A model generated the notes under the pieces. It saw nothing but the letters and a program-made list of their open reading frames with translations. It was not told where the DNA came from and ran no database searches. From the sequence record DRR723986_22395: a DNA stretch of 64,000 nucleotides, one strand, 5' to 3'. Below, piece after piece: positions 36,071-62,734 of this stretch (position 1 is the first letter of the stretch; each line of letters begins with the position of its first letter). A program made the translations under genes and the position numbers.

Positions 36071-36340
36071 TGCTTTACTAAAGAGTTGTCTGTTTATGCT
36101 CTTTTGAGAAGATTGAACAGAAGATTGAACAATCACGAAAACGTATTTACGGATCAATGCCTAGAAGGTTTACTTTTGCCAAATTGAAAAAAGACAGGTG
36201 GGTCTGACAAACCACGGCTGTTGAGCTGGTCGACATTAAGCCTCTTAATCAAATCAAGCTAACAATTGTAGGAAAATCTACTATTCGTCAAAGATTTAAC
36301 AGTTTAACTAAAGAAAAATTTCAAAATTGTTTTTACTTAG

Positions 36341-36442
36341 TATGTATATCCGCCTTTTTACCAGAATGGTGGTAAAAGCAATGTAAGATATGTTAACCTT
36401 AAGAATTGTAGCCACTTCAGCCTATCCCGCCAATGCGGGAGT
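36341..36442 (+). repeat. Dispersed intergenic element, copy B (with terminal CCCGC-caat-GCGGG hairpin)
   Basis: Gap-free alignment to 54082-54183, 83/102 identities by hand count. Confidence 0.88.
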
Positions 36443-36540
36443 TTTCAGTCTCCCTGTAGCTATCGAGAGGTCTATCAACTTGATAAGCAAAGAATCTAAA
36501 GTGACTGGCATCATAGCGTATAATCATCTTATTTAGTATT

Positions 36541-48317: not shown

Positions 48318-49121
48318 ATGAAAATAATTCTCCCGATTGATTTTTCAGAAAATTCAATTAATGCATTAGACTTTGCAATCGCACTTGCAGGGAAAAAAGA
48401 TGGCGAAATAATACTCGTACATGTCATAGAAGCAGTTTTCGACTTTGCTTCCCAAGCCTCTGTTGCCATGGAAAGCATGCATCGAGATGCCCAAGCTTTG
48501 ATGCAGAATACTTTAGAAAAATATAAAGGAACCAACCTGATTTTTCAAACTATTATCAAAGAAGGAACTGCTTCAATATCAATAGCCAGGATAGCAAGAG
48601 AATTAGATGCTACATTGGTGGTAATGGGAACTCAAGGCGCCAGTGGAATTAAACTTGCCCTTATTGGAAGTACTACAGTCAACCTGATCAAAGAATCATC
48701 AGTACCCGTATTAGTTGTGCCTGCAGAATCAATTGCAGCAGATATTCGAAAGGTAGCTTTGGCCTTAGAATTTGCTAGTCATGAGGAAAAATTCATAGGC
48801 TGGGTTATAGACATGAGTAGAAGATGGGACCGAGGAATAGAATTCGTTCATGTACAAACTTCCAATGATTTTGAGGAGGATCCCAGGATAAAAAATTTAG
48901 AAGATTTAATTGTCAAACAATATCCAGGCTTACCTCTTAAAATCCATACTTTTTATGCAAGAACACCCATTGAAGGATTAGATCAATTTTTGGAAGAAAA
49001 CGAAAATGTAATCCTCGTAATGTGCCACCAGCACAAAAATCTATGGGAGCAAGTCTTGAGCAGAAGCCAAACTATTCAAATGGTTTTCCATTCAAAAGTC
49101 CCACTTTTAGTAATGACCTGA
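48318..49121 (+). CDS. Universal stress protein (tandem USP domains)
   Basis: IILPIDFSENS, LVVMGTQGASG...IGSTT, PVLVVP; second domain ends in PLLVM. Confidence 0.92.
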   Translation: MKIILPIDFSENSINALDFAIALAGKKDGEIILVHVIEAVFDFASQASVAMESMHRDAQALMQNTLEKYKGTNLIFQTIIKEGTASISIARIARELDATLVVMGTQGASGIKLALIGSTTVNLIKESSVPVLVVPAESIAADIRKVALALEFASHEEKFIGWVIDMSRRWDRGIEFVHVQTSNDFEEDPRIKNLEDLIVKQYPGLPLKIHTFYARTPIEGLDQFLEENENVILVMCHQHKNLWEQVLSRSQTIQMVFHSKVPLLVMT

Positions 49122-49778
49122 TCACTTGCTGATCAACTCCTCGAAATCATCTCGAATGTAAATCACATTTCTACCCAATTCTATCCATTTCTTTTTCTCC
49201 AGTTGCTTTAACAGCCTAGAAACGACTTCCCTCGAAGTAGTAAGCTCATTTGCAATCTCCTGATGGGTAGTATGCAGTTCATTGGTTTTAAGTTGCTTCA
49301 TTTTTTTCACGATATATCCCATCAATCGCTCATCCATTCGTTTGAATGCAACCGCATCTAAGGCAACTAGCATTTCTTGAAAACGATTTTGGTAAGTATT
49401 GGACACAAAATCTTTCCATTGCTTGAAATCATTCGAGAACTGATCAATAATGGCAATAGGTATGGCAATAATTGTAGCATCTTCCTCAACTACGGCTTTG
49501 ATCTCACTTGCTTTTGAAGCAGAACAGCAGGTCAAGGATAACGCGCAAGTCTCACCAGCATCTAAAAAATACAGGAACAACTCTCTTCCCTCATCATCCA
49601 TTCTTGAAATTTTTATAGAGCCATCCAATACTATTGGTACCATTTTCATGAATTGTCCAGGCTCCATAATTACTTTTCCAGCCTTCAACTCCATTATCTG
49701 ACCCTTTTCCAATAGTTGGGCTATTAATGCTGGATCAGTAAAATTAGGTAGTGCTTCTTTCAGTTCTTCAGTAGTCAT
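49122..49778 (-). CDS. Crp/Fnr-family transcriptional regulator
   Basis: GSIKISR...GRELFLY..AGETC; THQEIANELTTSREVVSRLLK HTH; ATG at 49778. Confidence 0.92.
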   Translation of the reverse strand: MTTEELKEALPNFTDPALIAQLLEKGQIMELKAGKVIMEPGQFMKMVPIVLDGSIKISRMDDEGRELFLYFLDAGETCALSLTCCSASKASEIKAVVEEDATIIAIPIAIIDQFSNDFKQWKDFVSNTYQNRFQEMLVALDAVAFKRMDERLMGYIVKKMKQLKTNELHTTHQEIANELTTSREVVSRLLKQLEKKKWIELGRNVIYIRDDFEELISK

Positions 49779-49862
49779 ATCGTAATTAAAAGTTGGCGAA
49801 ATTATAAATCTCCGCTTCTTAGCTAAGTGATAAATATCACGTTTTCTCAATCAATATAGTTC

Positions 49863-49898
49863 AAAAAAAATACCTCCCAATTGACTTGAGAGGTATTT
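49863..49898 (-). terminator. Intrinsic terminator of the giant-gene pair
   Basis: AAATACCTC...GAGGTATTT stem with A8 on +, 22 nt after the stop at 49921. Confidence 0.8.
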
Positions 49899-49920
49899 CC
49901 ACTAAATGCTTCACCATTAG

Positions 49921-52900
49921 TTATTCACAGGTTGGGCAACAAACAAATGGAACCTTAGTGAGTGGAGATGTTCGCAAAATCCTAAAATGTCCCAAACCTC
50001 TACTCAATGGCCTCATTTCCTCTGGAGTATTAGTAGGAGGTATTTTATCCTTGTCAACGTTCTCCAAAATTTTCTCCATCAGCGGACTCTCCCTGACTTG
50101 TTGAAATTGTTCGAAGTGATCAAATATATTAGTAATGTTACCAAAAACCTCCACCACTAAGACACTGAGTGGGCTATCCTCGGGTAAACCAAACATTTTT
50201 AATCTACTTGCAATTTCTTCAGATGAAAACTTAGCTGTACCGACAGGATGAAGTTCCTTTAAATTTGCAACCAAATGTCCTTTGAGAATTAGGGAATCAT
50301 TTTGAACAAAAGAAGACTTAACCTTAGTAGGAACCTTATTTGGCGCTGAAGCTATTTTCTCCAAATCTTTAAATTGTTCATACTCTTTTTTATCATCAAC
50401 AATTTTTATCCCGATCTGCATTTCCTTTTCCCCCAATAATATATTCCTGAAGTCAAGTCCGTCGGCTTGAAAAACTTGAGCATATAACACTGCCCATAAG
50501 CTCGTTCTAGGTGGTTTGGAAGTAACGTTTTTACCATTCATTACCGCCTTTGCAAAAGGAGAAGTAACATACATTTGTTGCTTTCCTCTATTCAAGGTAC
50601 ATAATAAATTAGGAGCAGGATGCTGAATTCCTGTTACTCGAAGTGCTCTACCGAACCTAGCTTGAGCAGTCGACCAAAGGTTATCTTTCACACCGTCAAA
50701 ATGAGCATGCCCTACTCTAAATTCATAAGTAAAAAACCCAAAAAGCTCTGGGCTCTCTGCATGCATACCAGGTGGAAGCGGTAAAATAAAATGTCGATCA
50801 CTATCCAATGATTTAGTCATTTGCTGCATGGCTCCTATTGCTGCCATATCATCGCTCTGGCCAGGAGTGATTATTCTTGTCAGTTCGGGATCGAGATTCA
50901 ATGGGCTTTCTTCTGGTGCTATCAATTGTTCTGGAGCATTATTTGAAATCAACTGATCAGGAGCATTTGCCAACATCCTACAAAAATATAAGTCATCAGG
51001 ATTCTCCACCGGCTCTTCAAATTCAATCCATAAATGCCTCCTTCGCACCTCTGTGGAACTATAATCATCAGATCGATCATATGGAGAAAAGGCCAACCCT
51101 ACACTTTTCATTTTAGGCATTTGCGATGGCGCAATCACTGTTGGCAAAGTTAATTCTTCAAATTCCTTTACTGGGGTTGGTACGTGATTAGGCTTGAATT
51201 TTGGTGTTAGCTTATAATTAACCCAGATTTCATCCGGAAATCGAAGTTCAACCCCATCTCTTTTAAGATCATTTTTGGGTTCTATTGCATCTATAAAAAC
51301 AAGTCGAGTATATCCTCTGTTTATTTCCCCAAAACGATCTTCTTGAAGTGCTTCAAATGAAATAGTATGCTTAAGTTCTATTTCTCCAGCATTTTGAAGG
51401 TTTCTCCATTCACTCTCTAGGTCCCTTCTAAATTTGTACCTCTTACTGATTTGAAAAGCGTCATTCTCCAAACAATCCCAAGTCCAGTCTCTTTCCATTT
51501 TACAACTTATTCCACCAAGCCAGTGAGATTGCAACTCTGCTTTAGATGCGAAGGTCACACTGCTCCCATCCGGAGCTAAAGAATGCTGAATTCGAGAGCT
51601 ACAACCAAATGCTATCCTTTCTCCCTTTGGAGCCAGTAGAGTCATACCTTTGGCTTTACAGCCTAGGGCATCAGCCAACCTATTTACAATATCTGCCTCT
51701 CCAGTTTCTGTAACTCTTTTCAGCAGGTGTGAAAAAAGATTCTTTTTAATCGTCGGAACGCTTTCGGGACGAAGGAAAATGCCCTGCAATTCAGGCACAT
51801 TCCCGTACGGAAATAATAATTGACTCTCTTGAGATGGCTCCTTGTAGAAGCTTAATTGGGTCACTTTCCCATACCTACTATCATTTTCTATATTGGTATC
51901 TATAGAGCCAAAATATTCATCTGGATCATCGTCACTGCTAGCTAAACCTCGTAGAGTTACTCTAATATTTCTGCCCGTAGGTAAGATCAACTGGTCCATT
52001 TCATCTAAATCCGAATTTTTTAGATTATCTATAAAAAATGGATTAGCCTCTTCTCCAAGATTTAAAACCGGGACATCGATGAATTCTATGGGGATATCTA
52101 ATTTTTCATCAAATTCTGAGGGGAAAAAGCGTTTCGTTTGATATAATGTGATGTAGCTGTCAGAACCATTCTGACTTAGGACATTATCCATTCTAAGTGA
52201 TTTCACCTCTACTCTAATATATACTTCATTTACATCAGGATCTGCTAATGCTGGTTTTATAACGTTATTGATAGCAGCCACATTCTTCAATTCTGCAATG
52301 GGGTCCCGTCCCACCTTCTGATATTTTTGAGTAAAAACTACCGCTGGATATTCCAATAATGGTCGATGTAAGGAAATCTTAGGATTAGCAGAAAAAGATG
52401 TTTCTGCAGGATCAGTAGAGTTGAAATATTCTCCTGTCTGATTAAGTAGCTGACTGGGCATTTCAATCCTAAGCATACCAGGAATCACGTAACGCTTGAA
52501 GGCTACATTGGTCACAGGATTTGGCGCACTATTCAATGGCAGCTTATCCACTTTTGGTCCACCTCCGCTTATATCAGTTAAGCGAATTCTAAAGTCATAG
52601 CTTTGTCCATATCTAAGCACAGTATCAATTGGAGCCGGGATCAGCGTGGAATTAGGATCAACTTTCTTCACCTGGCTGCCTTTCAAAATAGCTCCATTTG
52701 CCTGATTATTTTTATAAATCAAAAGCGCGTCAAGATCTTCCGTTACCATGCTTTTGCCAATCCAATGTGCGTAATACATAGGCAACCAAAAATTGCTTGA
52801 ATCCTTCCCTGTCAGCTTAGTAGGATAAACTTGATAAGGAAGTTCTGTTGTAGACGCATCCAATTCCTTTCCCAAATTACTTTCTGGATTTATCTCAACT

Positions 52901-54051
52901 TCATTTAGACTTTCCCACATACTTCCTTCTTCCGCTTCTTTCACATCAATATGATAACCCATCACCCCCAAAGGAGCATCTAGTCTTAACCCTGAACCTA
53001 TGGCTTGAATATCTGTGTTTTCTGTCAGCTGTCTGATATACCACACTAATATCTGCTCATCATCCCATCCCAATCTAATACCTGCCTCGGTTTGGGGATG
53101 AAAACCATCTCTTTTTTCCTTAATAAGATTCCCACTTTTAGGTTGATTAGCATGGACTATTTTTGCAAAACCATCATCATATAATCGGGCCTCCTGAAAA
53201 ACCTCATCCCAAGGTCCCAATGGAATTACTGGAGTTGGATCAGAATTTTTCTTATGAACTACAGGGAAAGTCACAGCCGCAAAAACCGGACGTTCGATGC
53301 CGGGTACCAAAGCTGGAATTCTGGCAGCGTATCGTTTTATTAATGGCCCTTCTGAGTGTTCCAAAAGTTGATCTTGAACTGAAGCATATGGATCATTTAC
53401 TATATCTGCATATATGAAGCCTCCATTTTCAAACCATGATTCTTCCAGAGGTATTGTTACCTTATACACCATTCCACAAGCTTCAGCCAATAAGGGTTGC
53501 TTAAGAATTTGGGCGAAAATCTTGCCCCAACTTATCTTATCTACGGGAGCAACAGGCTGAAGAGGAAGCTTATCCCTTACTGCACATTCATAGCTATCAT
53601 CCGTGACAGCATTGGGATGCCGAGGTTGAGTAAAATTGAAGCTTTTCCTATAAGTTTCAGGCAGATATTTTTTAACGCTCTTGGCCACCTCTACCACTGG
53701 TGGAAGTTTATCGTTGGTATTTCCTATGGTTAGGTTAAAACTCTTGGATACTTTTTCCAGCAAACTTGCCTTTTTTGTAGCTTCTGTGACGGTGACTGGA
53801 ACTAACACCGGCATTCGATCTGGATTTAATGGATTTGAAATTGGGAAGTCATCAGTCCCTCTGACTATCCCCAAACTGAATTGAGGCTGAAAATCAGCAA
53901 ATCCAGGAACGGAATTCGGGCTTGCCGGTCCGGTATTCCAATTAACAAACGGATCCGTATTAGTTGGCACTACTAAAATATTTACAGACAAATTCTTCCC
54001 ATCAAAGTGCTGAGGAAGTGCCATTACTGAAAGAAGTTTTTTAAGTTCCAT
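49921..54051 (-). CDS. Giant hypothetical protein B (1376 aa), proline/beta-rich, possibly with Ig/FN3-like modules; C-terminal CCPTC
   Basis: Uninterrupted 4.1-kb ORF; no signal peptide or recognisable catalytic motif; LRYGQSYDFRIRLTDISG resembles an FN3 strand motif. Confidence 0.85.
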   Translation of the reverse strand: MELKKLLSVMALPQHFDGKNLSVNILVVPTNTDPFVNWNTGPASPNSVPGFADFQPQFSLGIVRGTDDFPISNPLNPDRMPVLVPVTVTEATKKASLLEKVSKSFNLTIGNTNDKLPPVVEVAKSVKKYLPETYRKSFNFTQPRHPNAVTDDSYECAVRDKLPLQPVAPVDKISWGKIFAQILKQPLLAEACGMVYKVTIPLEESWFENGGFIYADIVNDPYASVQDQLLEHSEGPLIKRYAARIPALVPGIERPVFAAVTFPVVHKKNSDPTPVIPLGPWDEVFQEARLYDDGFAKIVHANQPKSGNLIKEKRDGFHPQTEAGIRLGWDDEQILVWYIRQLTENTDIQAIGSGLRLDAPLGVMGYHIDVKEAEEGSMWESLNEVEINPESNLGKELDASTTELPYQVYPTKLTGKDSSNFWLPMYYAHWIGKSMVTEDLDALLIYKNNQANGAILKGSQVKKVDPNSTLIPAPIDTVLRYGQSYDFRIRLTDISGGGPKVDKLPLNSAPNPVTNVAFKRYVIPGMLRIEMPSQLLNQTGEYFNSTDPAETSFSANPKISLHRPLLEYPAVVFTQKYQKVGRDPIAELKNVAAINNVIKPALADPDVNEVYIRVEVKSLRMDNVLSQNGSDSYITLYQTKRFFPSEFDEKLDIPIEFIDVPVLNLGEEANPFFIDNLKNSDLDEMDQLILPTGRNIRVTLRGLASSDDDPDEYFGSIDTNIENDSRYGKVTQLSFYKEPSQESQLLFPYGNVPELQGIFLRPESVPTIKKNLFSHLLKRVTETGEADIVNRLADALGCKAKGMTLLAPKGERIAFGCSSRIQHSLAPDGSSVTFASKAELQSHWLGGISCKMERDWTWDCLENDAFQISKRYKFRRDLESEWRNLQNAGEIELKHTISFEALQEDRFGEINRGYTRLVFIDAIEPKNDLKRDGVELRFPDEIWVNYKLTPKFKPNHVPTPVKEFEELTLPTVIAPSQMPKMKSVGLAFSPYDRSDDYSSTEVRRRHLWIEFEEPVENPDDLYFCRMLANAPDQLISNNAPEQLIAPEESPLNLDPELTRIITPGQSDDMAAIGAMQQMTKSLDSDRHFILPLPPGMHAESPELFGFFTYEFRVGHAHFDGVKDNLWSTAQARFGRALRVTGIQHPAPNLLCTLNRGKQQMYVTSPFAKAVMNGKNVTSKPPRTSLWAVLYAQVFQADGLDFRNILLGEKEMQIGIKIVDDKKEYEQFKDLEKIASAPNKVPTKVKSSFVQNDSLILKGHLVANLKELHPVGTAKFSSEEIASRLKMFGLPEDSPLSVLVVEVFGNITNIFDHFEQFQQVRESPLMEKILENVDKDKIPPTNTPEEMRPLSRGLGHFRILRTSPLTKVPFVCCPTCE

Positions 54052-54081
54052 GATGAAAAAGGTCTATTTAAAAATAAATAT

Positions 54082-54183
54082 TATGTATATCTGCTCGTCT
54101 TCCTGCAAAGTAGGAAAAGCAAAGTAGGATATCTTAAACTTAAGAATTGAAGCCACTTCAGCCTGTTCCGCCAATGCGGGAGT
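54082..54183 (+). repeat. Dispersed intergenic element, copy C, between the two giant genes
   Basis: 83/102 gap-free identities to 36341-36442 by hand count. Confidence 0.88.
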
Positions 54184-54281
54184 CTTTGTTCACTTGTTCT
54201 GAAAATAGCCGATGTATCTTCCAACCTGAAAAACAAAGAATCTAAGCTGACTGGCATTATTGCTAATAATCAAACTAAGAA

Positions 54282-57200
54282 TTAAGCAATCTGTCTGCTT
54301 TCCTGCCATGTCTCCTCAAAATCAATATTGATGATAAAGCAAATGCTGATCTCAAGTCCAAAAGTGACTGACGCTGTGCATTCTGTTCTTTTTTCAGGAA
54401 TAAGTCTAGTAACTGTACCACTGGCTTCAATATAAATAGTCACTGCCACCAAACCACCAACTAAACTTGCCTTACCTCTGAATAGCATAAAAGCAGTGAC
54501 ACTGATTAGGTCCGCACTTGCATACATTTCACATCCTACCATATAGGTGACAGACACATTACCTACAACAGGCAGTCCAACAGCTATGGTGGCTCCAAAG
54601 CCAAGCTTCATAGTCAGGCTTGGACCTATTTTAGTGTCACAAGCTACTTTTAGCTGCACCTCACCGATTGCAAAAATCGTGGCTCCACCCACGGTAACAC
54701 ACATCACTTCGAGCCCACCACGGAACTCAATAAATGCACCTGCGGTAGGTAAAAGTTGTTTTGGATCTGTCGTAACCTTAAGTGCCGCATTGAAATAAAC
54801 CCCTAATGATAAACCAGCTTCTAATTTGAGTGGGGTCTGAGGTGAGTTGTACGCATTTTCTTCTGGCGGAAATCGTACTAAAGGAATTTCTTTAGAAGCT
54901 TCAAATTTGTATTCCCAAATCTCACCTGCATTACTCATGGCTATTTTGAGACCTTTTTGCATTACTGCGCCATAATCTCCGGTACTGAGAGATGCTAAAA
55001 GTTGTAATATATCTATCACAGGCTGTAGCTCATCACTGAACTCAATCTCTGGAGTAGGAAGACCTAGGGCAGGAAAGTCATCATCCTTAAACCCCTCATA
55101 ACCTGACTCTTTACCCTTCTTAGCATCAAAATTCCCTTTAATAGTCATTAAACGTTTAAAACTACCCAAATCGACAACCATAGCCAGATTATTCAATCTA
55201 CTCTTCCATGATTTAGCTGTATCGTTGGCAAAGGAGTCTATATCAAAATTCAGCTTGCTATCTACATAAGTATTTGGATTTTCTTCCTTCTTACCCGTTT
55301 GATAGTCGATATAAATTTTCAATGCTTCCATATCCACCAAATACACTTGGATTGGAGGGAGATCAAAAGCTACCGCTTTCTTCAGAACATCATTAGCACC
55401 AGTAGATAAAAGCTCAAACCCCTGATCTATTATTGATTCCCCTTCTTTTTGGAGTTCAATTTTCAGCATTTCCAAAACTTTAACTCCACCATCTTCCAAA
55501 CCATTCTCTTTGAAAACGCTTGCAGCCGCACCAACACCAGCTAATGCGCCACTGAATAGTACTGCTGCTTTTCCAAATTCATCAATGCCATTTCCCGCAT
55601 TTGGAAAAATACCACTCCCTGCCATTAATCGATAAGCATCTGCATAGAGCATCGGGGTTTTACTAAGAAGCTTTTTAGTTCCATTTTCGAATGATGGCGT
55701 CAAAACAAGTGCTTTCTGGGAAGCAGTGGTTTGGAGTATCCCGAAGTTGACGGTACTTGAGTCAGGATTTCTCAATAATTCTGAAGGGCTGGCTAATCTT
55801 AATAGCTTCGTATTTACATCAGCCTGTTTTACCACGATATCTTTTACCCACTTTCCTACTCTAATCAAGGGAACAGGTATATGCGGAGGTAAAGGAGTCA
55901 CATCGCCAGAACTCACATTATGCTGTACCACAGTCCAGCTACCGGTTTTTGGCAGGATTAGACTACCTCTTGAGGAAGCCACAAAAATTGGGTCTGAAGA
56001 CGATTGGCTTGTAGCATGAGAGAAATCGAACCGTGAAATCCGCATTTGCTGCCCTGATTTATTGACGTCCATTATACAATTAATATCTCCACCTATAATT
56101 CCGCCCTGCAAATTCAACAGTTCTTTAAAGCGGTTAGGACTCAGAGGCACTCCTGTTGGTGCTAATTGTACATATCCCAAGATCTTTTTGGAAGGGGTTC
56201 TGTTTTTAGAATGTCCTTGTACTAAGTTTTCCAGCTCCACATCTGCATCAAACCAAACGGGTCGACATATAATGGGTAATTCTTTGTCAGTATTCTGGTT
56301 CCAAGTTTGTTCTACACCCAATATATCTATATACGTCTCATTCTTTTTTATATAATCTTTTCGTTCAAAATCAGCAATTGACGCATCTTCTTCAATATTT
56401 CTTATGTTGAACAAACCCCGTAATGTGCCCGGATGGATTTCATAAGGATCATGGTGGACCAAATTGCCATTTCTTACGAAATCATATCCGAAATCAAACT
56501 TACCATCTGTCTCAGGTTGCCATCCACTGTCTACACGATAGACGAATCCCGAACTGGTACGAAATAGGGTGATCGTCCGTACCACACGTATTCCCCAAGG
56601 ATAAACCAAGCTTTTCACTTGAATCACTTCATGTCCAGTTCTACCCAGCATAACATCAAATCGAGCTTGACTTGTACTTGCGATCGCTGCAGAAGGGCTT
56701 AGCCAATTACTAAACATGCTCGCTCCGTATCCGGAGAAATCTATTGTTGAGACTGGAACTCCCTTGGGGTCTCCACTTTGGGTGGAAAATTCTGTGTTAA
56801 AAATAGTTGTTACTGAATCACCTAGTGTACTGGCATTGGTGTAGGTACCATATGCGGAAAGAATGTTATTTAATTGAAAGGTAAACCCGTCAAACATCGG
56901 TAAGTCTCTTTCTAAAGGAGGCTTTTTCCCAGCATCACCACCTATAGCTCTAATTTGTATTCCTCCTTGCAAACTATCCGGGAACTTGGGGTTGACCCCT
57001 TCCAGTCGTGGAAGCAAATCTTGATATGGACTTTTTTGTGTGAGTTGAGCTACAGCTTTTAATCCAAAAGGCAACGTAAACTGTGCCAAAAGATCTATCT
57101 TTTTCTGTCTATATTGATCTAATATAAAGGAAGTTAAAGGTATTGGAGATAGAGTTACACTTAAACTACTTGTATTGATAAGTCGTGTAGGTCCACCATC

Positions 57201-59582
57201 ATTAAGGTAATAATTATATCCCCCAGGTGGGTCCATAGGTTGTGGAGGATTGGGAGGAGTGGTCAAATTCAATACAGGCTCCCAGGCCACCTGAGGCAAT
57301 AAGAATACCCTTGCCAAATATCCCGGAACTTTCACCTGCATTCCTTCTACAGAAATCATTTGTCCATCTTGTGCGACAACGTTAGCCTCGGTTTCTGTCT
57401 TGTGGGTTGCTACCCCAGTAACTTGCCGCTGGGATATTGCTCCCACGTTCGTGCCGAGGCTCACCCCAACTTGATTTGCATTGGAACTTACATCCAGCAA
57501 TGTGAAAAAATCCCGAGAGAAACCTGACACTTGCTTATCATATTCAGCCTCATAGTCTGGCGTTTTTGCCTTGGTGCTTGCACTTTTGGGCACATTTGAA
57601 TCGCTACTAAGTCTATAGACTACCTTTTCAGACTCGAAATCTCGTACCGCATTCATAAGCCCTCCAGCTTGAGCATCATTTGAGGTGCCAGAAGCTGGAT
57701 GAGTTACTGCCTGCCCAAAATGGAAAGAAACTAGTACCTCATCATCTTTGTCGGGAATTGGTTTTTGAATAATTCGACATACCAGCCAATTTTTAATGTT
57801 TTGCAGATTGGAACCTTTTCGATTGAAGGATCTACTGAGCTCTCCGAAATTCGCCAAATAAGGATCCGGTAAGGTTGGGAGATATGCCAACATACCAAAA
57901 ACCAAGTAGGTTTGGCTCTCCAAAATTCTTGTCCACTCACCATTACATTTACCAAAAACCATACAGCCATTTACCGGAGATACAGTGAATAATGCATTTT
58001 CCAGTGCTAATGCTATTGATTTAAATTCAGGCACCTTATCAAACGGCAATTTATTATCCCACAGGATATTATCATCCATTAAGAGAAGTAAATTCGACGC
58101 ATCATTTCCAGCTAAAATTAAGGCAGATTCTTTGGTCTTAATTGCAACTGCATGCCCATTTACTTGCTTAGGCCTATCAACATTAACTGAGGTATTACAA
58201 GTAGAAAAAATGAGTTCAGTCCCCTCAGACAGACAGTTATATAAGAAAGCTGTTTTTGAAAGAAATGCGACATCAATCGAGGTTCCATAGGGGTTGAGCT
58301 TATCTTTCCAATGATCAAAATGCATAGCCCCGCCAGATCCATTTGCTGCCAGTGAGGTAATTGCAATTCTTCCTTCTTCTACCAAAAAGAGACTGTCATT
58401 TAACCTGATTTTTTGAGTCTCAACGTTGGCCCAACTAAACTGAATTCCTGACTCCCATTCTTCCACCATCCCTCCTATCCCAGATACTTCTAAAGGAGCA
58501 TTTATATCTAAGGATGCCGCCGGAATTGCCCACCAACTCAATTTAACCTTAGCTTCGCCGGACAACTCCGCCCAATTCCCTTGCACTTTCTTAGGAGAAA
58601 AAACTTTGCCTTTTGAATCAGGTGCAAATGGGATACAAAATCGACTGAGTTGGGTGTTATAGGTAGCTGCTTTGTTCTGAAAGCCGAAAGAATTTGAATT
58701 CCCATACACGTTCCATTGAGCATCACCAGCACTAATTATCTGCCCTAAACCTGAGCCCGTAAACTTGAATTTAATAGCTTCAGGGCATTGAAGCGACATC
58801 TCAGCTGCATCTCTGCCATATTTCTTCAAGCTTTTATTTCCTTTTACAGGAGGTGAATCAAGTTTTAGATCTACAGTTACTTGGGTATTCATCCCCAAAA
58901 GGAGGTTATTTCCATTTAGCACTGGCTTAGCTGTCAATGAAATTGTCCCAGCTAGTATTTTTAGTCCAAAATACCGGTCCTCCGGGGCATTTGATGCAAA
59001 CATTTTAGCTTTAACCCATACACTACCCGCAACCAAGGTGTAGTTTTCAGACACTTCCATGGCAGGACTATTGATTGTCTGAACTCTAGGTTTAGTGAAT
59101 TTTGCTTTAAAAAATATCAAAGGTTCATTTGACCCTTGTTGCCGTAACGCAATCAGCTTTTCTACATTGTAAACATCCACGAAAACCTGTAAGCCATCGA
59201 CTCTGGTTATTGGTCCGATTGTTTTATCAACTTTTGCCCCCACAGCCCATGCCGGCACACTCTTTTTCACCTGACTAGTTCGAACCGGAACTTCACGCAC
59301 AAAAACTTTAGTCTCTGGCTGCGCGGTGACCTTTAGCCCACTTACTTCTTTGGAGATTTCATCAATCTTAATTTTATCAGGCTTAGTAAGCCTGTCCTGA
59401 AAGAAAAAATCTGCAGTTTGAACAGTTAATTTTTCAGCTTGAATATCAGTCAGAGACTGGTGTTGTAAGGCTTTTGCCAGAATTGGAATCCCTTCAGTAA
59501 TCGATTTTTTTTCTTTGGAGTCATTAGCCTCTAATTGACTAAATACCTCTGTAAGCAGGGACTGAATCAGGTCTTTTTCCAT
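54282..59582 (-). CDS. Giant hypothetical protein A (1766 aa), beta-rich, with a C-terminal amphipathic beta-meander
   Basis: Uninterrupted 5.3-kb ORF; no signal peptide; the last ~200 aa are successive Gly-rich alternating hydrophobic strands. Confidence 0.85.
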   Translation of the reverse strand: MEKDLIQSLLTEVFSQLEANDSKEKKSITEGIPILAKALQHQSLTDIQAEKLTVQTADFFFQDRLTKPDKIKIDEISKEVSGLKVTAQPETKVFVREVPVRTSQVKKSVPAWAVGAKVDKTIGPITRVDGLQVFVDVYNVEKLIALRQQGSNEPLIFFKAKFTKPRVQTINSPAMEVSENYTLVAGSVWVKAKMFASNAPEDRYFGLKILAGTISLTAKPVLNGNNLLLGMNTQVTVDLKLDSPPVKGNKSLKKYGRDAAEMSLQCPEAIKFKFTGSGLGQIISAGDAQWNVYGNSNSFGFQNKAATYNTQLSRFCIPFAPDSKGKVFSPKKVQGNWAELSGEAKVKLSWWAIPAASLDINAPLEVSGIGGMVEEWESGIQFSWANVETQKIRLNDSLFLVEEGRIAITSLAANGSGGAMHFDHWKDKLNPYGTSIDVAFLSKTAFLYNCLSEGTELIFSTCNTSVNVDRPKQVNGHAVAIKTKESALILAGNDASNLLLLMDDNILWDNKLPFDKVPEFKSIALALENALFTVSPVNGCMVFGKCNGEWTRILESQTYLVFGMLAYLPTLPDPYLANFGELSRSFNRKGSNLQNIKNWLVCRIIQKPIPDKDDEVLVSFHFGQAVTHPASGTSNDAQAGGLMNAVRDFESEKVVYRLSSDSNVPKSASTKAKTPDYEAEYDKQVSGFSRDFFTLLDVSSNANQVGVSLGTNVGAISQRQVTGVATHKTETEANVVAQDGQMISVEGMQVKVPGYLARVFLLPQVAWEPVLNLTTPPNPPQPMDPPGGYNYYLNDGGPTRLINTSSLSVTLSPIPLTSFILDQYRQKKIDLLAQFTLPFGLKAVAQLTQKSPYQDLLPRLEGVNPKFPDSLQGGIQIRAIGGDAGKKPPLERDLPMFDGFTFQLNNILSAYGTYTNASTLGDSVTTIFNTEFSTQSGDPKGVPVSTIDFSGYGASMFSNWLSPSAAIASTSQARFDVMLGRTGHEVIQVKSLVYPWGIRVVRTITLFRTSSGFVYRVDSGWQPETDGKFDFGYDFVRNGNLVHHDPYEIHPGTLRGLFNIRNIEEDASIADFERKDYIKKNETYIDILGVEQTWNQNTDKELPIICRPVWFDADVELENLVQGHSKNRTPSKKILGYVQLAPTGVPLSPNRFKELLNLQGGIIGGDINCIMDVNKSGQQMRISRFDFSHATSQSSSDPIFVASSRGSLILPKTGSWTVVQHNVSSGDVTPLPPHIPVPLIRVGKWVKDIVVKQADVNTKLLRLASPSELLRNPDSSTVNFGILQTTASQKALVLTPSFENGTKKLLSKTPMLYADAYRLMAGSGIFPNAGNGIDEFGKAAVLFSGALAGVGAAASVFKENGLEDGGVKVLEMLKIELQKEGESIIDQGFELLSTGANDVLKKAVAFDLPPIQVYLVDMEALKIYIDYQTGKKEENPNTYVDSKLNFDIDSFANDTAKSWKSRLNNLAMVVDLGSFKRLMTIKGNFDAKKGKESGYEGFKDDDFPALGLPTPEIEFSDELQPVIDILQLLASLSTGDYGAVMQKGLKIAMSNAGEIWEYKFEASKEIPLVRFPPEENAYNSPQTPLKLEAGLSLGVYFNAALKVTTDPKQLLPTAGAFIEFRGGLEVMCVTVGGATIFAIGEVQLKVACDTKIGPSLTMKLGFGATIAVGLPVVGNVSVTYMVGCEMYASADLISVTAFMLFRGKASLVGGLVAVTIYIEASGTVTRLIPEKRTECTASVTFGLEISICFIINIDFEETWQESRQIA

Positions 59583-60312
59583 AATAAAAAGTGTTTAGAC
59601 TTGTGAAGCCCTCTCATGATAAAAACTGTTTACTTCTGCTACCACATAAAAATCGACACCAAACAATTAAAAATTAAAAGAGCATTATCAAGTTAGTAAT
59701 AAATCCAAATAATCCCTAAGACCATCCAATCTATATCATTGAATATCTACCAATTATGAAATTATTTTTAGTAATATTCACTAACCAGGATTAGGGTTAA
59801 TAAAAATGAAATCTATTAAATACTTAATACTGAGAACGCATTATCACCTATGGAATTAGCTGTACTGATGAATAACATTTAACCAGAAAAAGTTATATCC
59901 ACTTGAGTCTATTGAAATAAGCATTCCAGTTCATTGGAATCTTCAGGACTATCAAGTATGCATATTTCGCTATAACCTAGCTCAAGGGATAAGGATCCTA
60001 CAATTATACTTCGCTAATAACTGATGTCAGCACTTTTCCCGGTGGTAGAAATTTTTTTCTGCTAGTTGGATTAAATTATCTTCAAGCCTGGAATCCTTCA
60101 CAATAGATGAATTGCTATAGAGACAGGGTGAATTATACAAGAATAATTTACCGAACCTAAAGGGACCCTCAGAGCCAGAAAGGGAGCTTATCCTGCATTT
60201 TGAAATCAAACTACTCCTTTAAATTAGCAAGGAATTTATTCTGGTAATTGGGAGGCATTCGATAAAATGACCAAGGAATTTTAAAACATGACAAAAATCT
60301 TCTTTATTTTTC

Positions 60313-60343
60313 TTTAGATTCATTCCAAATAGTTCTATTTTTG
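60313..60343 (+). promoter_or_regulatory. feoAB promoter (-7 TATTTTTG) with an adjacent AT-rich near-palindrome (candidate iron-repressor box)
   Basis: TTTAGATTCATTCCAAATA at 60313-60331, immediately upstream of TATTTTTG at 60336-60343. Confidence 0.5.
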
Positions 60344-60371
60344 CAACCGGTCAAAAGACCTATACAAATAT

Positions 60372-60599
60372 ATGATCGTTACAGCTGATTCTATACCTGT
60401 CACCCGGGCAGCAATTATAAAAGAAATTTTAGATTCTCCATTGAAAATCAACTTGATGGAGCTTGGGTTTTTGCCTGGGAAAACAATCACCCTGCATCAT
60501 TCCGCTCCAATGGGAGGACCTATGGCATTCAAGCTTGATGAAACTATACTCGCCCTTAGAAAAACCGAAGCTTCACTCATTGAAGTACAATTGCTCTGA
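60372..60599 (+). CDS. feoA: Ferrous iron transport protein A
   Basis: LMELGFLPG...APMGGP...ALRKTEA. Confidence 0.92.
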   Translation: MIVTADSIPVTRAAIIKEILDSPLKINLMELGFLPGKTITLHHSAPMGGPMAFKLDETILALRKTEASLIEVQLL

Positions 60600-60604
60600 A
60601 TTTC

Positions 60605-62734
60605 ATGACCGAGTCAACAATTCCCTCCCAAGTCAAATCTCCAAAAATCGCCATCATCGGGAATCCGAATGTTGGTAAATCAACTATTTTCAATCAACTC
60701 ACCGGATTAAACCAAAAAATCGGTAATTATCCTGGAGTGACTGTAGATAAAAGGACCGGTTCTATGGTGTATCATGGGTCAAACTATGAGATCATTGACC
60801 TACCCGGAACTTATAGTCTATACCCAAACTCGGAAGATGAAATCATAGCGCATCGAGTTCTGAACCAGTTGAGTGAAGAGGAGAAGCCAGATTTCGTATT
60901 AATGGTAATTGATTCCTGCCAGCTTTCTCGAGGACTATTCTTGGCTACTCAATTAATCGATTTGGGCTTAAATATGGCCTTGGTGCTAAATATGGCTGAC
61001 ATTGCCACCAGGAAAAATATTGCGATTAAAACCTTTGAGATTTTCAAAGCCCTAGGAGTGCCTATTTTGAGCACAGATGCCAGGGGAGAAAAAGGTTTGG
61101 ACCAAATTCGTGAGTTAATTCATCAACAAAACTTTAGTAAGAAATCGTCTTTTATAACCATTGAAGAGGTAGTTCCTGGTAACATACTAAATGAAGTAAA
61201 AGAAAAATTTGAATTTTCGAACTCCTATCAGGCATATCAAATGCTTCGTTTTGGAGAAAAAGATAAAACCATTTCATTGGAAAACAGAAGTTGGATCAAG
61301 GCAAAACTTGAAGAAACCAACTTTAACCTTGAAAAAGCACAGCTCGAGGAAACCAAAATTCGATATAGAATTATCACCTCAATTGTAGAAAAAGCAGTAG
61401 TAAAAACTCCTGATGTAAAGAAGGAGTCTGGAATTGATAAAATCCTACTCCATCCAGTATTTGGTTATGTCATATTTGGAGGAATTTTATTGGTGATCTT
61501 TCAGGCGATTTTTGCTTGGGCTTCTGTGCCTATGGATTTGATAGATGGATTTTTTGCTGAGCTTGCCGGCTCTGTTTCCAGCCTACTACCTGAAGGACCA
61601 CTCTCCAGTTTAATAACTGAAGGCATAATACCGGGCATAGGGGGAGTAGTAATATTTATCCCTCAGATCGCTATGCTTTTTGGTTTTCTTGCTATTCTGG
61701 AAGATACCGGATATATGTCCAGAGTGGTATTTCTGATGGATCGTTGGATGCGTCCATTTGGACTTCATGGCAAAAGTATAGTTCCCTTAGTATCAGGCGT
61801 CGCCTGCGCTATTCCTGGGGTAATGGCTGCTAGGAACATTGGCAATTGGAAGGAAAAAATCATCACCATAATGGTGACCCCATTGATGAGTTGCTCTGCC
61901 AGACTTCCTGTGTACGTGATTCTAATAGGATTGGTAGTCCCTAACGAACTTGTTTTTGGTTTTGTAAACCTTCAAGCGCTTACTTTACTAGGACTTTATT
62001 TATTAGGAGTTATAGGTGTATTATTCACTGCTTTGCTTCTGAAAAACATCCTGAAAACTGAGGAGAAAAGCTTCCTTATGGTAGAGCTTCCTACTTATCG
62101 CGCCCCTCGTTGGTTAGACGTACTGATGACCATGTACAATAAGTCCAAAACTTTTGTGTTTGAGGCTGGTAAAGTTATCCTTGCGATTTCAGTAATACTT
62201 TGGGTATTGGCTTCCTATGGCCCGCCTGAGAGAATGGATTCTATTCGAGCTGAAAGCGAAGTGAAATTAGCGCAGGCAACTCCCGAGGAAATTCCTGAAA
62301 TCGAAAATGAGACTTCTTCCCTCCTACTTGAGAACTCTTTCATTGGGATTATGGGAAGAGCAATTGAGCCGGTAATCCGACCATTAGGATACGATTGGAA
62401 AATTGGAATCGCATTGATTGCATCATTTGCAGCACGTGAAGTGTTTGTATCAACAATTGCTACTATATATAGCATAGGGGCAGATACAGAAGATGAGCTT
62501 ACTATCCGACAAAAATTGAATCAGCAAATCAATCCTACAACTGGAGATAAAGTTTATAATAAAGCCACCGCATTTTCACTGATGGTATTCTACGCATTCG
62601 CCATGCAGTGTATGAGTACGCTTGCCGTGGTGTATAGGGAAACCAAAGGCTGGAAATGGCCGTTGATTCAGACAGTATATATGACTGCACTGGCCTATTT
62701 ATCGGCCTTGCTGGTCTATCAAATTTTATCCTAA
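60605..62734 (+). CDS. feoB: Ferrous iron transport protein B
   Basis: GNPNVGKST, NYPGVTV, DLPG, NMAD, MSCSARLP, gate domains. Confidence 0.96.
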   Translation: MTESTIPSQVKSPKIAIIGNPNVGKSTIFNQLTGLNQKIGNYPGVTVDKRTGSMVYHGSNYEIIDLPGTYSLYPNSEDEIIAHRVLNQLSEEEKPDFVLMVIDSCQLSRGLFLATQLIDLGLNMALVLNMADIATRKNIAIKTFEIFKALGVPILSTDARGEKGLDQIRELIHQQNFSKKSSFITIEEVVPGNILNEVKEKFEFSNSYQAYQMLRFGEKDKTISLENRSWIKAKLEETNFNLEKAQLEETKIRYRIITSIVEKAVVKTPDVKKESGIDKILLHPVFGYVIFGGILLVIFQAIFAWASVPMDLIDGFFAELAGSVSSLLPEGPLSSLITEGIIPGIGGVVIFIPQIAMLFGFLAILEDTGYMSRVVFLMDRWMRPFGLHGKSIVPLVSGVACAIPGVMAARNIGNWKEKIITIMVTPLMSCSARLPVYVILIGLVVPNELVFGFVNLQALTLLGLYLLGVIGVLFTALLLKNILKTEEKSFLMVELPTYRAPRWLDVLMTMYNKSKTFVFEAGKVILAISVILWVLASYGPPERMDSIRAESEVKLAQATPEEIPEIENETSSLLLENSFIGIMGRAIEPVIRPLGYDWKIGIALIASFAAREVFVSTIATIYSIGADTEDELTIRQKLNQQINPTTGDKVYNKATAFSLMVFYAFAMQCMSTLAVVYRETKGWKWPLIQTVYMTALAYLSALLVYQILS

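Follow-up and report, generated by a model that had tools for sequence, protein, structure and literature searches.

The 64,000-nt stretch of DNA analysed here, DRR723986_22395 (the window, to which all positions refer), carries between positions 49921 and 59582 just two long open reading frames (ORFs), both on the minus strand, which we term A and B. Gene A (P0001; 54282-59582, minus strand) encodes a protein of 1766 aa and gene B (P0002; 49921-54051, minus strand) one of 1376 aa, each an intact frame opening with ATG; no internal stop codon interrupts either translation, and the remaining ORFs of the region encode 82-101 aa on the opposite strand. The ORF list and translations thereby bear out the original prediction, made from the sequence alone, of two intact co-oriented genes of these lengths. 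A and B constitute a previously undescribed protein family, and the comparisons below establish the pair as a new, obligately two-component, horizontally mobile accessory module.

The unit ends in its own rho-independent terminator (~49864-49900, minus strand), a 15-bp stem followed by U8 directly past the B stop codon, with a folding energy of −21.8 kcal/mol and a z score of −4.28. The terminator, already seen on first reading, was missed by a simple scanner and recovered by reading the sequence and folding it against 200 shuffles, none of which was equally stable. Upstream of A, a non-coding spacer of 787 bp with a GC content of 0.31-0.35 (59583-60369, minus strand) reaches feoA/feoB on its far side, in agreement with the ~790-bp AT-rich, gene-free region first described, and presumably holds the promoter of the A-B unit.

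A word-indexed search returned 739 homologues of A and at least 1731 of B, and an exhaustive profile search gave 1128 representatives of B at 50% clustering; these homologues are overwhelmingly called hypothetical, with isolated labels such as 'Baseplate J-like', 'LysM' and FN3. In the genome collection, at least 567 of 599 candidate stretches encode a relative of B, and more than 651 further loci are known from metagenomes. Pairing in genomes was counted at the best 80 loci, three of which are truncated by contig ends, and A lies immediately upstream of B on the same strand at all 77 informative loci. A metagenome set was drawn deliberately from a distant subfamily and comprised 48 loci with the N-terminus of B and at least 1500 bp of upstream sequence; A adjoins B at every one of them, upstream on the same strand in 45, head-to-head in two, and in one as an upstream ORF assigned to the A family through BLAST alone. 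Two metagenome contigs, L167 and L179, carry A upstream of B on the opposite strand and are the sole exceptions to the A-then-B order. No third gene conserved with the pair emerged among the clustered genome and metagenome loci.

The distance from the A stop to the B start has a median of 29 bp and is at most 60 bp in 51 of 72 cases, and one metagenomic protein, P0389, is a fragment of a natural A-B fusion; no fusion longer than 2409 aa was found, itself weak evidence. Sequence comparison showed that A and B are unrelated to each other and are not paralogues, and their pairwise distances correlate with r = 0.98 over 62 taxa. Measured against Algoriphagus yeomjeoni, the ratio of nonsynonymous to synonymous substitution rates (dN/dS) comes to 0.06 in A and 0.058 in B, close to the values for the flanking feoB, crp, usp and tauE, which places A and B under strong purifying selection at a housekeeping level. 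The pair has the same GC content as the window. The two genes are broken up into several ORFs each at three loci (L038, L061 and L068), possibly through decay or assembly error.

Carriage of the pair is patchy. B was found in 46 of 84 genomes of the window's genus, in 12 of 401 genomes of Bacteroidota and, counting the seed in each case, in 2 of 301 genomes of Chloroflexota, 3 of 201 of Acidobacteriota and 3 of 201 of Planctomycetota. Both the constant adjacency and the patchy taxonomy envisaged on first reading were found. Within the genus, the pair always occupies the same feoAB/crp site, and it is present in a single copy in all six genomes checked: G001, the nearest genome, which carries the pair and was used in place of the source genome of the window, and G530-G534. 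Three same-genus genomes are empty at this position, keeping feoB and crp-usp-tauE with no remnant of A or B; because the site is intact and remnant-free in these three genomes, the pair is a clean presence/absence cassette at a fixed site. The crp and feoAB flanks pointed out in the original prediction are real as a local Algoriphagus context, but they are not conserved partners of the pair. Genomes of the genus with the pair tend to be larger by eye, at ~5.1 Mb versus ~4.4 Mb for those lacking it, in a comparison uncorrected for phylogeny.

A FastTree phylogeny of B contains one Cyclobacteriaceae clade, one Chitinophagaceae clade and one mixed clade, the last comprising Chitinophagaceae, Saprospiraceae, Lewinellaceae, Ignavibacteriota, Acidobacteriota, Chloroflexota and Nitrospirota. 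Some of the labels that metagenome-assembled genomes (MAGs) contribute to this tree are probably binning errors. Four MAG contigs labelled Citrobacter freundii, Ca. Brocadia and Limnohabitans (L044, L052, L027 and L033) nest inside Chitinophagaceae or Algoriphagus clades, and we consider these probable binning errors rather than cross-phylum transfers. The pair also resides on megaplasmids of Bacillus toyonensis, Tistrella mobilis, Microvirga terrae and Ca. Chlorohelix and is intact on three of the four, the A gene of Tistrella pTM1 looking frameshifted and lying ~1 kb from B. On pTM1 (L083, 10273-14986) the tail of A is rich in Pro and Arg and looks out of frame, which may reflect decay or an assembly error.

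Searches of Pfam, NCBIfam, PADLOC and PHROGs gave no family for A or B at E values up to 1, and neither single-protein nor profile searches matched A or B to PDB sequences. Pfam scans of 83 homologues (18 + 18 close, 39 distant and 8 plasmid-borne) returned noise only, except for FG-GAP repeats in one B homologue, which has them in a C-terminal extension. Neither protein has a confident full-length match to a characterised family, in keeping with the undescribed status proposed on first reading. Literature searches, which did not cover supplementary tables, returned nothing on the locus tags, the accessions, DUF6603 or the motif strings, and searches by concept returned nothing relevant in titles and the opening lines of abstracts.

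The leads that did surface are faint. A profile built from 63 diverse B sequences finds its best PDB match, at E = 1, in the consensus FN3 protein 4u3h, in an alignment that covers the classic FN3 B/C and F/G strand motifs and corresponds to aa ~345-505 of B (52537-53019, minus strand); UniRef also applies an FN3 label to some B homologues. We treat this region as a lead only: Pfam fn3 matches neither A, B nor the homologues scanned, a profile of the region by itself finds nothing in the PDB, and the region has no repeat in A. With homologues as queries, the ESM Atlas yielded only unnamed clusters and two weak leads, one a cluster with PG_binding_1 in 42% of its members (score 0.76), the other the DUF6603 clusters, the nearest named clusters to the A family (score 0.80). 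FG-GAP and PG_binding_1 are usually extracellular domain types.

Two candidate relationships, to DUF6603 and to Baseplate_J, were rejected. A link to DUF6603 (PF20248) reached a probability of 15.9% in hhalign and 8% with a deeper alignment, over ~85 columns only; DUF6603 has no Pfam match here, and the A and B profiles find nothing with hmmsearch among DUF6603 cluster proteins. Baseplate_J (PF04865) is matched by Pfam in no member scanned, the labelled homologue P0163 included, and has no six-frame match in G001; hhalign of the B family against Baseplate_J proteins gave a probability of 0.08%. The source labels 'Baseplate J-like' and 'LysM domain-containing', each attached to single homologues, were not reproduced by Pfam. 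The Tc toxin families VRP1, TcA_TcB_BD, TcdB middle, SpvB and RHS repeats are absent from the Pfam results for A, B and the homologues scanned.

These results bear directly on whether A-B could descend from a phage-tail-like apparatus (baseplate or fibre), either as what is left of it or as a derivative that stands alone. The two labels just mentioned would fit such an origin, as would beta-rich proteins with an FN3-like motif and no signal peptide. We nevertheless regard it as very improbable and largely refuted, given that neither Baseplate_J nor LysM is matched by Pfam even in the labelled members, that the pair-carrying G001 has no six-frame Baseplate_J match, and that the phage and viral collections contained no homologue of A or B. 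In addition, no sheath, tube, spike or other tail gene was present in 160 clustered genome and metagenome loci or in four annotated plasmid regions.

Protein B is conserved along its full length across phyla and ends in a distinctive tail. In the window, the conserved C-terminal tail (49924-50019, minus strand) reads ...PLSxxLGHFRILRTSPLTKVPFVCCPTCE, and across the family it takes the form ...DPLGxxLGxxRILRTSPLxxVPxxC past a variable linker. Among diverse full-length representatives, 76 of 78 carry this motif, and 31 of the 76 stop at the conserved Cys itself, others ending in CC, CCxxC and similar; near relatives have the motif in 116 of 117 cases. To our knowledge, and from our literature searches, no described family has this Cys-ending signature. 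Across 63 diverse sequences, C156, H300 and the tail Cys C1371 of B are invariant, as are further polar residues including D369, R490, D493, D604, D855 and E1110.

Such a set of invariant polar residues, together with conservation along the entire length of both A and B, would suit a giant two-subunit enzyme of a new class acting, for example, in the synthesis or modification of a polymer or secondary metabolite, and biosynthetic genes do lie near a few copies (a thioesterase in L119 and a radical SAM gene in L171). We consider an enzyme improbable, however: no NTPase, nuclease or other catalytic, nucleotide-binding or cofactor-binding family matched A, B or the ~80 homologues scanned, in line with the lack of a recognisable P-loop or catalytic motif reported on first reading. 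Biosynthetic neighbours are not conserved, and the beta-, Pro- and Gly-rich composition of both proteins, the beta-richness having been noted at the outset and borne out here, also speaks against this role.

Protein A is built differently. Its N block (aa 1-~625) and C block (aa ~690-1766) are joined by a variable linker (aa ~625-690), an architecture deduced from variants whose alignment to A falls into two segments separated by a longer linker; the N block is the faster-evolving. The linker (57513-57710, minus strand), where conservation dips to 0.41-0.43, measures 65 aa in the window and 100-155 aa in P0019, P0111 and P0116. At its end, A carries a C-terminal beta-rich domain (aa ~1440-1766; 54285-55265, minus strand) with a period-2 hydrophobic pattern, Gly-containing turns roughly every 18-19 residues and the maximal amphipathic-beta power of the protein. 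The core of A (aa ~83-1334) is still recognisable in Bacillus and alphaproteobacteria, in which similarity over the last 200-400 residues is undetectable while the amphipathic beta pattern is kept; the A C-termini of Bacillus, Chlorohelix and Microvirga show this pattern despite the lost sequence similarity. In some distant homologues, the match to the A profile ends at ~position 1351, and many distant A proteins have Cys-containing C-terminal tails of the form ...GGPC[AP]LPDVL or ...YSHAMSC. The Cys-ending tail of B and the strongly amphipathic, beta-rich C-terminal domain predicted in A are the hallmarks of the family.

A hydrophobicity scan, which is not a dedicated signal-peptide predictor, detected no hydrophobic N-terminal segment in A or B, and Pfam matched neither protein to the type IX secretion system (T9SS) sorting domains Por_Secre_tail or CHU_C; the two scans agree with the first reading, which had found no Sec or lipoprotein signal and no T9SS domain. 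No transmembrane segment was recognised either: no 19-aa window of B exceeds a hydrophobicity of 1.6, and in A the windows that do so are confined to the beta-rich C-terminus and a single lineage-specific run of Ala and Gly.

A and B are separated by 230 bp rather than by a short spacer. This distance is atypical for the family, and ~198 of the 230 bp belong to a copy of a ~200-bp dispersed intergenic repeat resembling a miniature inverted-repeat transposable element or repetitive extragenic palindrome (54075-54281, minus strand) inserted between the two genes. The repeat is absent from this position in A. yeomjeoni and Algoriphagus marinus and present in G001, where it has 47 matches genome-wide, the full-length copies being 69-78% identical. 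The insertion fits exactly between the A stop and the B start and disrupts neither gene. Two more copies lie elsewhere in the window, at 36338-36526 and 26-105.

In the upstream spacer, the ends are 87-90% identical to A. yeomjeoni, the proximal 200 bp at 87.5%, and the proximal part contains short blocks conserved in 10 relatives. The middle ~480 bp is not shared with A. yeomjeoni, where ~140 bp occupies this place. No Rfam family matched across 49000-61000 of the window. Past the terminator, the downstream neighbour is a gene for a Crp-family regulator, and a Usp gene also lies near A-B. Between the terminator and the Crp-family gene stands the perfect palindrome GTGATAAATATCAC (49827-49840), which is probably that regulator's own Crp/Fnr-type operator; GTGAT-N4-ATCAC has a perfect copy in the window only before the crp-like gene and none upstream of A.

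Beyond the window, the neighbourhood of the pair depends on where the copy resides. Chromosomal copies lie mostly among ordinary metabolic genes, and only ~5 of 142 non-redundant neighbours within three ORFs of the pair at loci L036-L080 are defence-like or toxin-antitoxin-like. Distant copies are often adjoined by integrases, transposases, conjugation genes and some restriction or TIR genes, and the plasmid copies by toxin-antitoxin pairs, a restriction enzyme, an ABC-three-component system and a type I-D CRISPR system; TIR_2, a Type ISP restriction-modification enzyme and Fic are further neighbours of copies on plasmids and genomic islands. The association with defence islands is weak for chromosomal copies and suggestive only for those on plasmids and mobile elements. 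About 10 kb upstream of A-B in Bacillus toyonensis there is an XhlA/holin pair.

The neighbours of the plasmid and island copies, along with the patchy and horizontally transferred distribution, could be explained by defence against phages or mobile elements, in which B or the A core would act as the infection sensor and the C-terminal beta domain of A would kill the cell by damaging its membrane (abortive infection). The far faster divergence of that domain than of the core is typical of swappable effector domains. Yet the failure of PADLOC to match either protein, the mostly ordinary metabolic setting of the chromosomal copies and the lack of an NTPase, nuclease or other sensor or effector domain all argue otherwise, as do the very large size and strong whole-length conservation of A and B and their stable inheritance at a single site in roughly half the genus, and we judge such a role unlikely.

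A different set of neighbours points inside the cell. Catalase adjoins the pair in Tistrella and Chlorohelix, and MsrA, MsrB, AhpC, rubredoxin and nitroreductase lie near some other copies. With Usp and Crp at the locus analysed here, redox and stress genes seem frequent companions, which is consistent with an intracellular structural or physiological complex, for example a scaffold or compartment linked to stress or redox state, whose Cys-ending tails would be metal or redox sites. The invariance of C156, H300 and the terminal Cys of B, the Cys in distant A tails, the missing signal peptides, the native GC content and the housekeeping-level selection would all suit such a role. Against it, none of the redox neighbours is conserved with the pair, no cofactor-binding family was matched, and the pair is absent from ~97% of the Bacteroidota sampled and ~45% of the genus, while carriage on plasmids and mobile elements would be unusual for core physiology. 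We hold this explanation to be just as doubtful as defence.

We tentatively place first, as possible though short of probable, a large, beta-rich, toxin-like or particle-forming A-B complex that would act on a membrane or envelope outside the cytoplasm of the producer. A and B would be the two subunits of one self-contained complex, encoded by a family that spreads horizontally. A would combine its conserved core with a fast-evolving amphipathic beta-hairpin C-terminal domain that may contact or insert into a membrane, and B would serve as a scaffold or binding body with an FN3-like module, its flexible Cys-ending tail docking or latching the complex through metal binding or a thiol link. Because neither A nor B has a signal peptide, the complex would be released by lysis or by some other route. 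The XhlA/holin pair near the Bacillus toyonensis copy also speaks for this reading. The ranking of the readings follows from the missing catalytic and NTPase families, the beta-rich composition, the fast-evolving amphipathic C-terminus of A, the mobility of the pair, and hints in the form of weak extracellular-type domain signs in relatives (the PG_binding_1 lead from the Atlas, FG-GAP and the FN3-like motif). Physical binding of A to B, action on a membrane, the location of the complex and its target are inferred rather than demonstrated.

Several observations weigh against an extracellular toxin-like or particle-forming complex. Cross-phylum identities of 41-50% and low dN/dS are unusual for arms-race toxins, and no secretion, lysis or immunity gene is conserved near the pair, whose products carry no signal peptide. 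The C-terminal pattern of A would fit a buried beta-sandwich or solenoid equally well, and the FN3, FG-GAP and PG-binding hints are weak or single-case. In Algoriphagus, the module is stable at one chromosomal site, with native GC content and beside stress and regulatory genes, a setting that is equally compatible with a physiological intracellular role. The original prediction of an undescribed accessory paired module stands, whereas the mechanisms it offered as examples, a membrane-inserting or lipid-bridging protein, a lysis-released toxin complex or a defence module, are not established.

A bolder form of the membrane-active complex, which we think more doubtful than the general version, would make A-B a new and widespread kind of two-protein machine. 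Flexible tails ending in an invariant Cys, in B throughout and in A in many lineages, would use a thiol or metal link to assemble the giant beta-rich complex or to arm it, giving a signal-less, self-delivering device that attacks membranes or remodels envelopes and that plasmids and genomic islands have carried into at least eight phyla. Our assessments of all these readings leave a remainder for possibilities not considered here.

Whichever role applies, ~9.4 kb of coding DNA is kept under housekeeping-level selection, has been transferred whole among at least eight phyla and occurs in about half the genomes of a marine genus, yet it matches no curated family or solved structure by sequence. 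New toxins, defence systems and nanomachines have repeatedly emerged from modules of this type. Strict pairing, 1128 clustered B representatives and an invariant Cys-ending tail define the family well, and culturable carriers exist, such as Algoriphagus machipongonensis (ALPR1_14204 and its neighbour).

Of the known systems, the multi-subunit Tc (ABC) toxins, TcA with TcB-TcC, resemble A-B in comprising very large signal-less proteins encoded by adjacent genes with a patchy distribution, often on plasmids or islands, and in being released without a classical secretion signal, as proposed here for A-B. They differ in having three genes rather than two and in belonging to Pfam families that A-B does not match, whereas A-B is predicted to be mostly beta and has no known link to an insect or other host. 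The baseplate wedge proteins of phages, extracellular contractile injection systems and type VI secretion systems (Baseplate_J/gp6-like) are likewise large, beta-rich and signal-less, but they share no sequence or profile similarity with A-B, which lacks nearby sheath, tube and spike genes. The two-gene anti-phage systems with large proteins catalogued in PADLOC are accessory and mobile like A-B, some copies of which lie near toxin-antitoxin, restriction-modification or CRISPR genes; in contrast to those systems, A-B gives no PADLOC match, has no ATPase, nuclease, TIR or protease domain, and in its chromosomal copies sits mostly among metabolic genes.

A parallel in organisation comes from the DUF6603 clusters of Bacteroidia, in which, as in A-B, a giant domain-less protein is followed by a conserved protein of ~1000-1270 aa. 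At five loci (L102-L106, in genomes G410, G179, G504, G107 and G434), DUF6603 proteins of 1069-1378 aa occur in clusters of co-oriented giant domain-less genes, and in three of these clusters a conserved partner of ~960-1270 aa lies directly downstream. The profile match to A is short and local, confined to its beta-rich C-terminus and of the low hhalign probability given above, and the DUF6603 clusters hold more genes than A-B, one of them including a GH25 lysozyme and a phage tail collar domain. They represent another uncharacterised giant-protein system, unrelated in sequence to A-B and similar to it in how its large genes are arranged.

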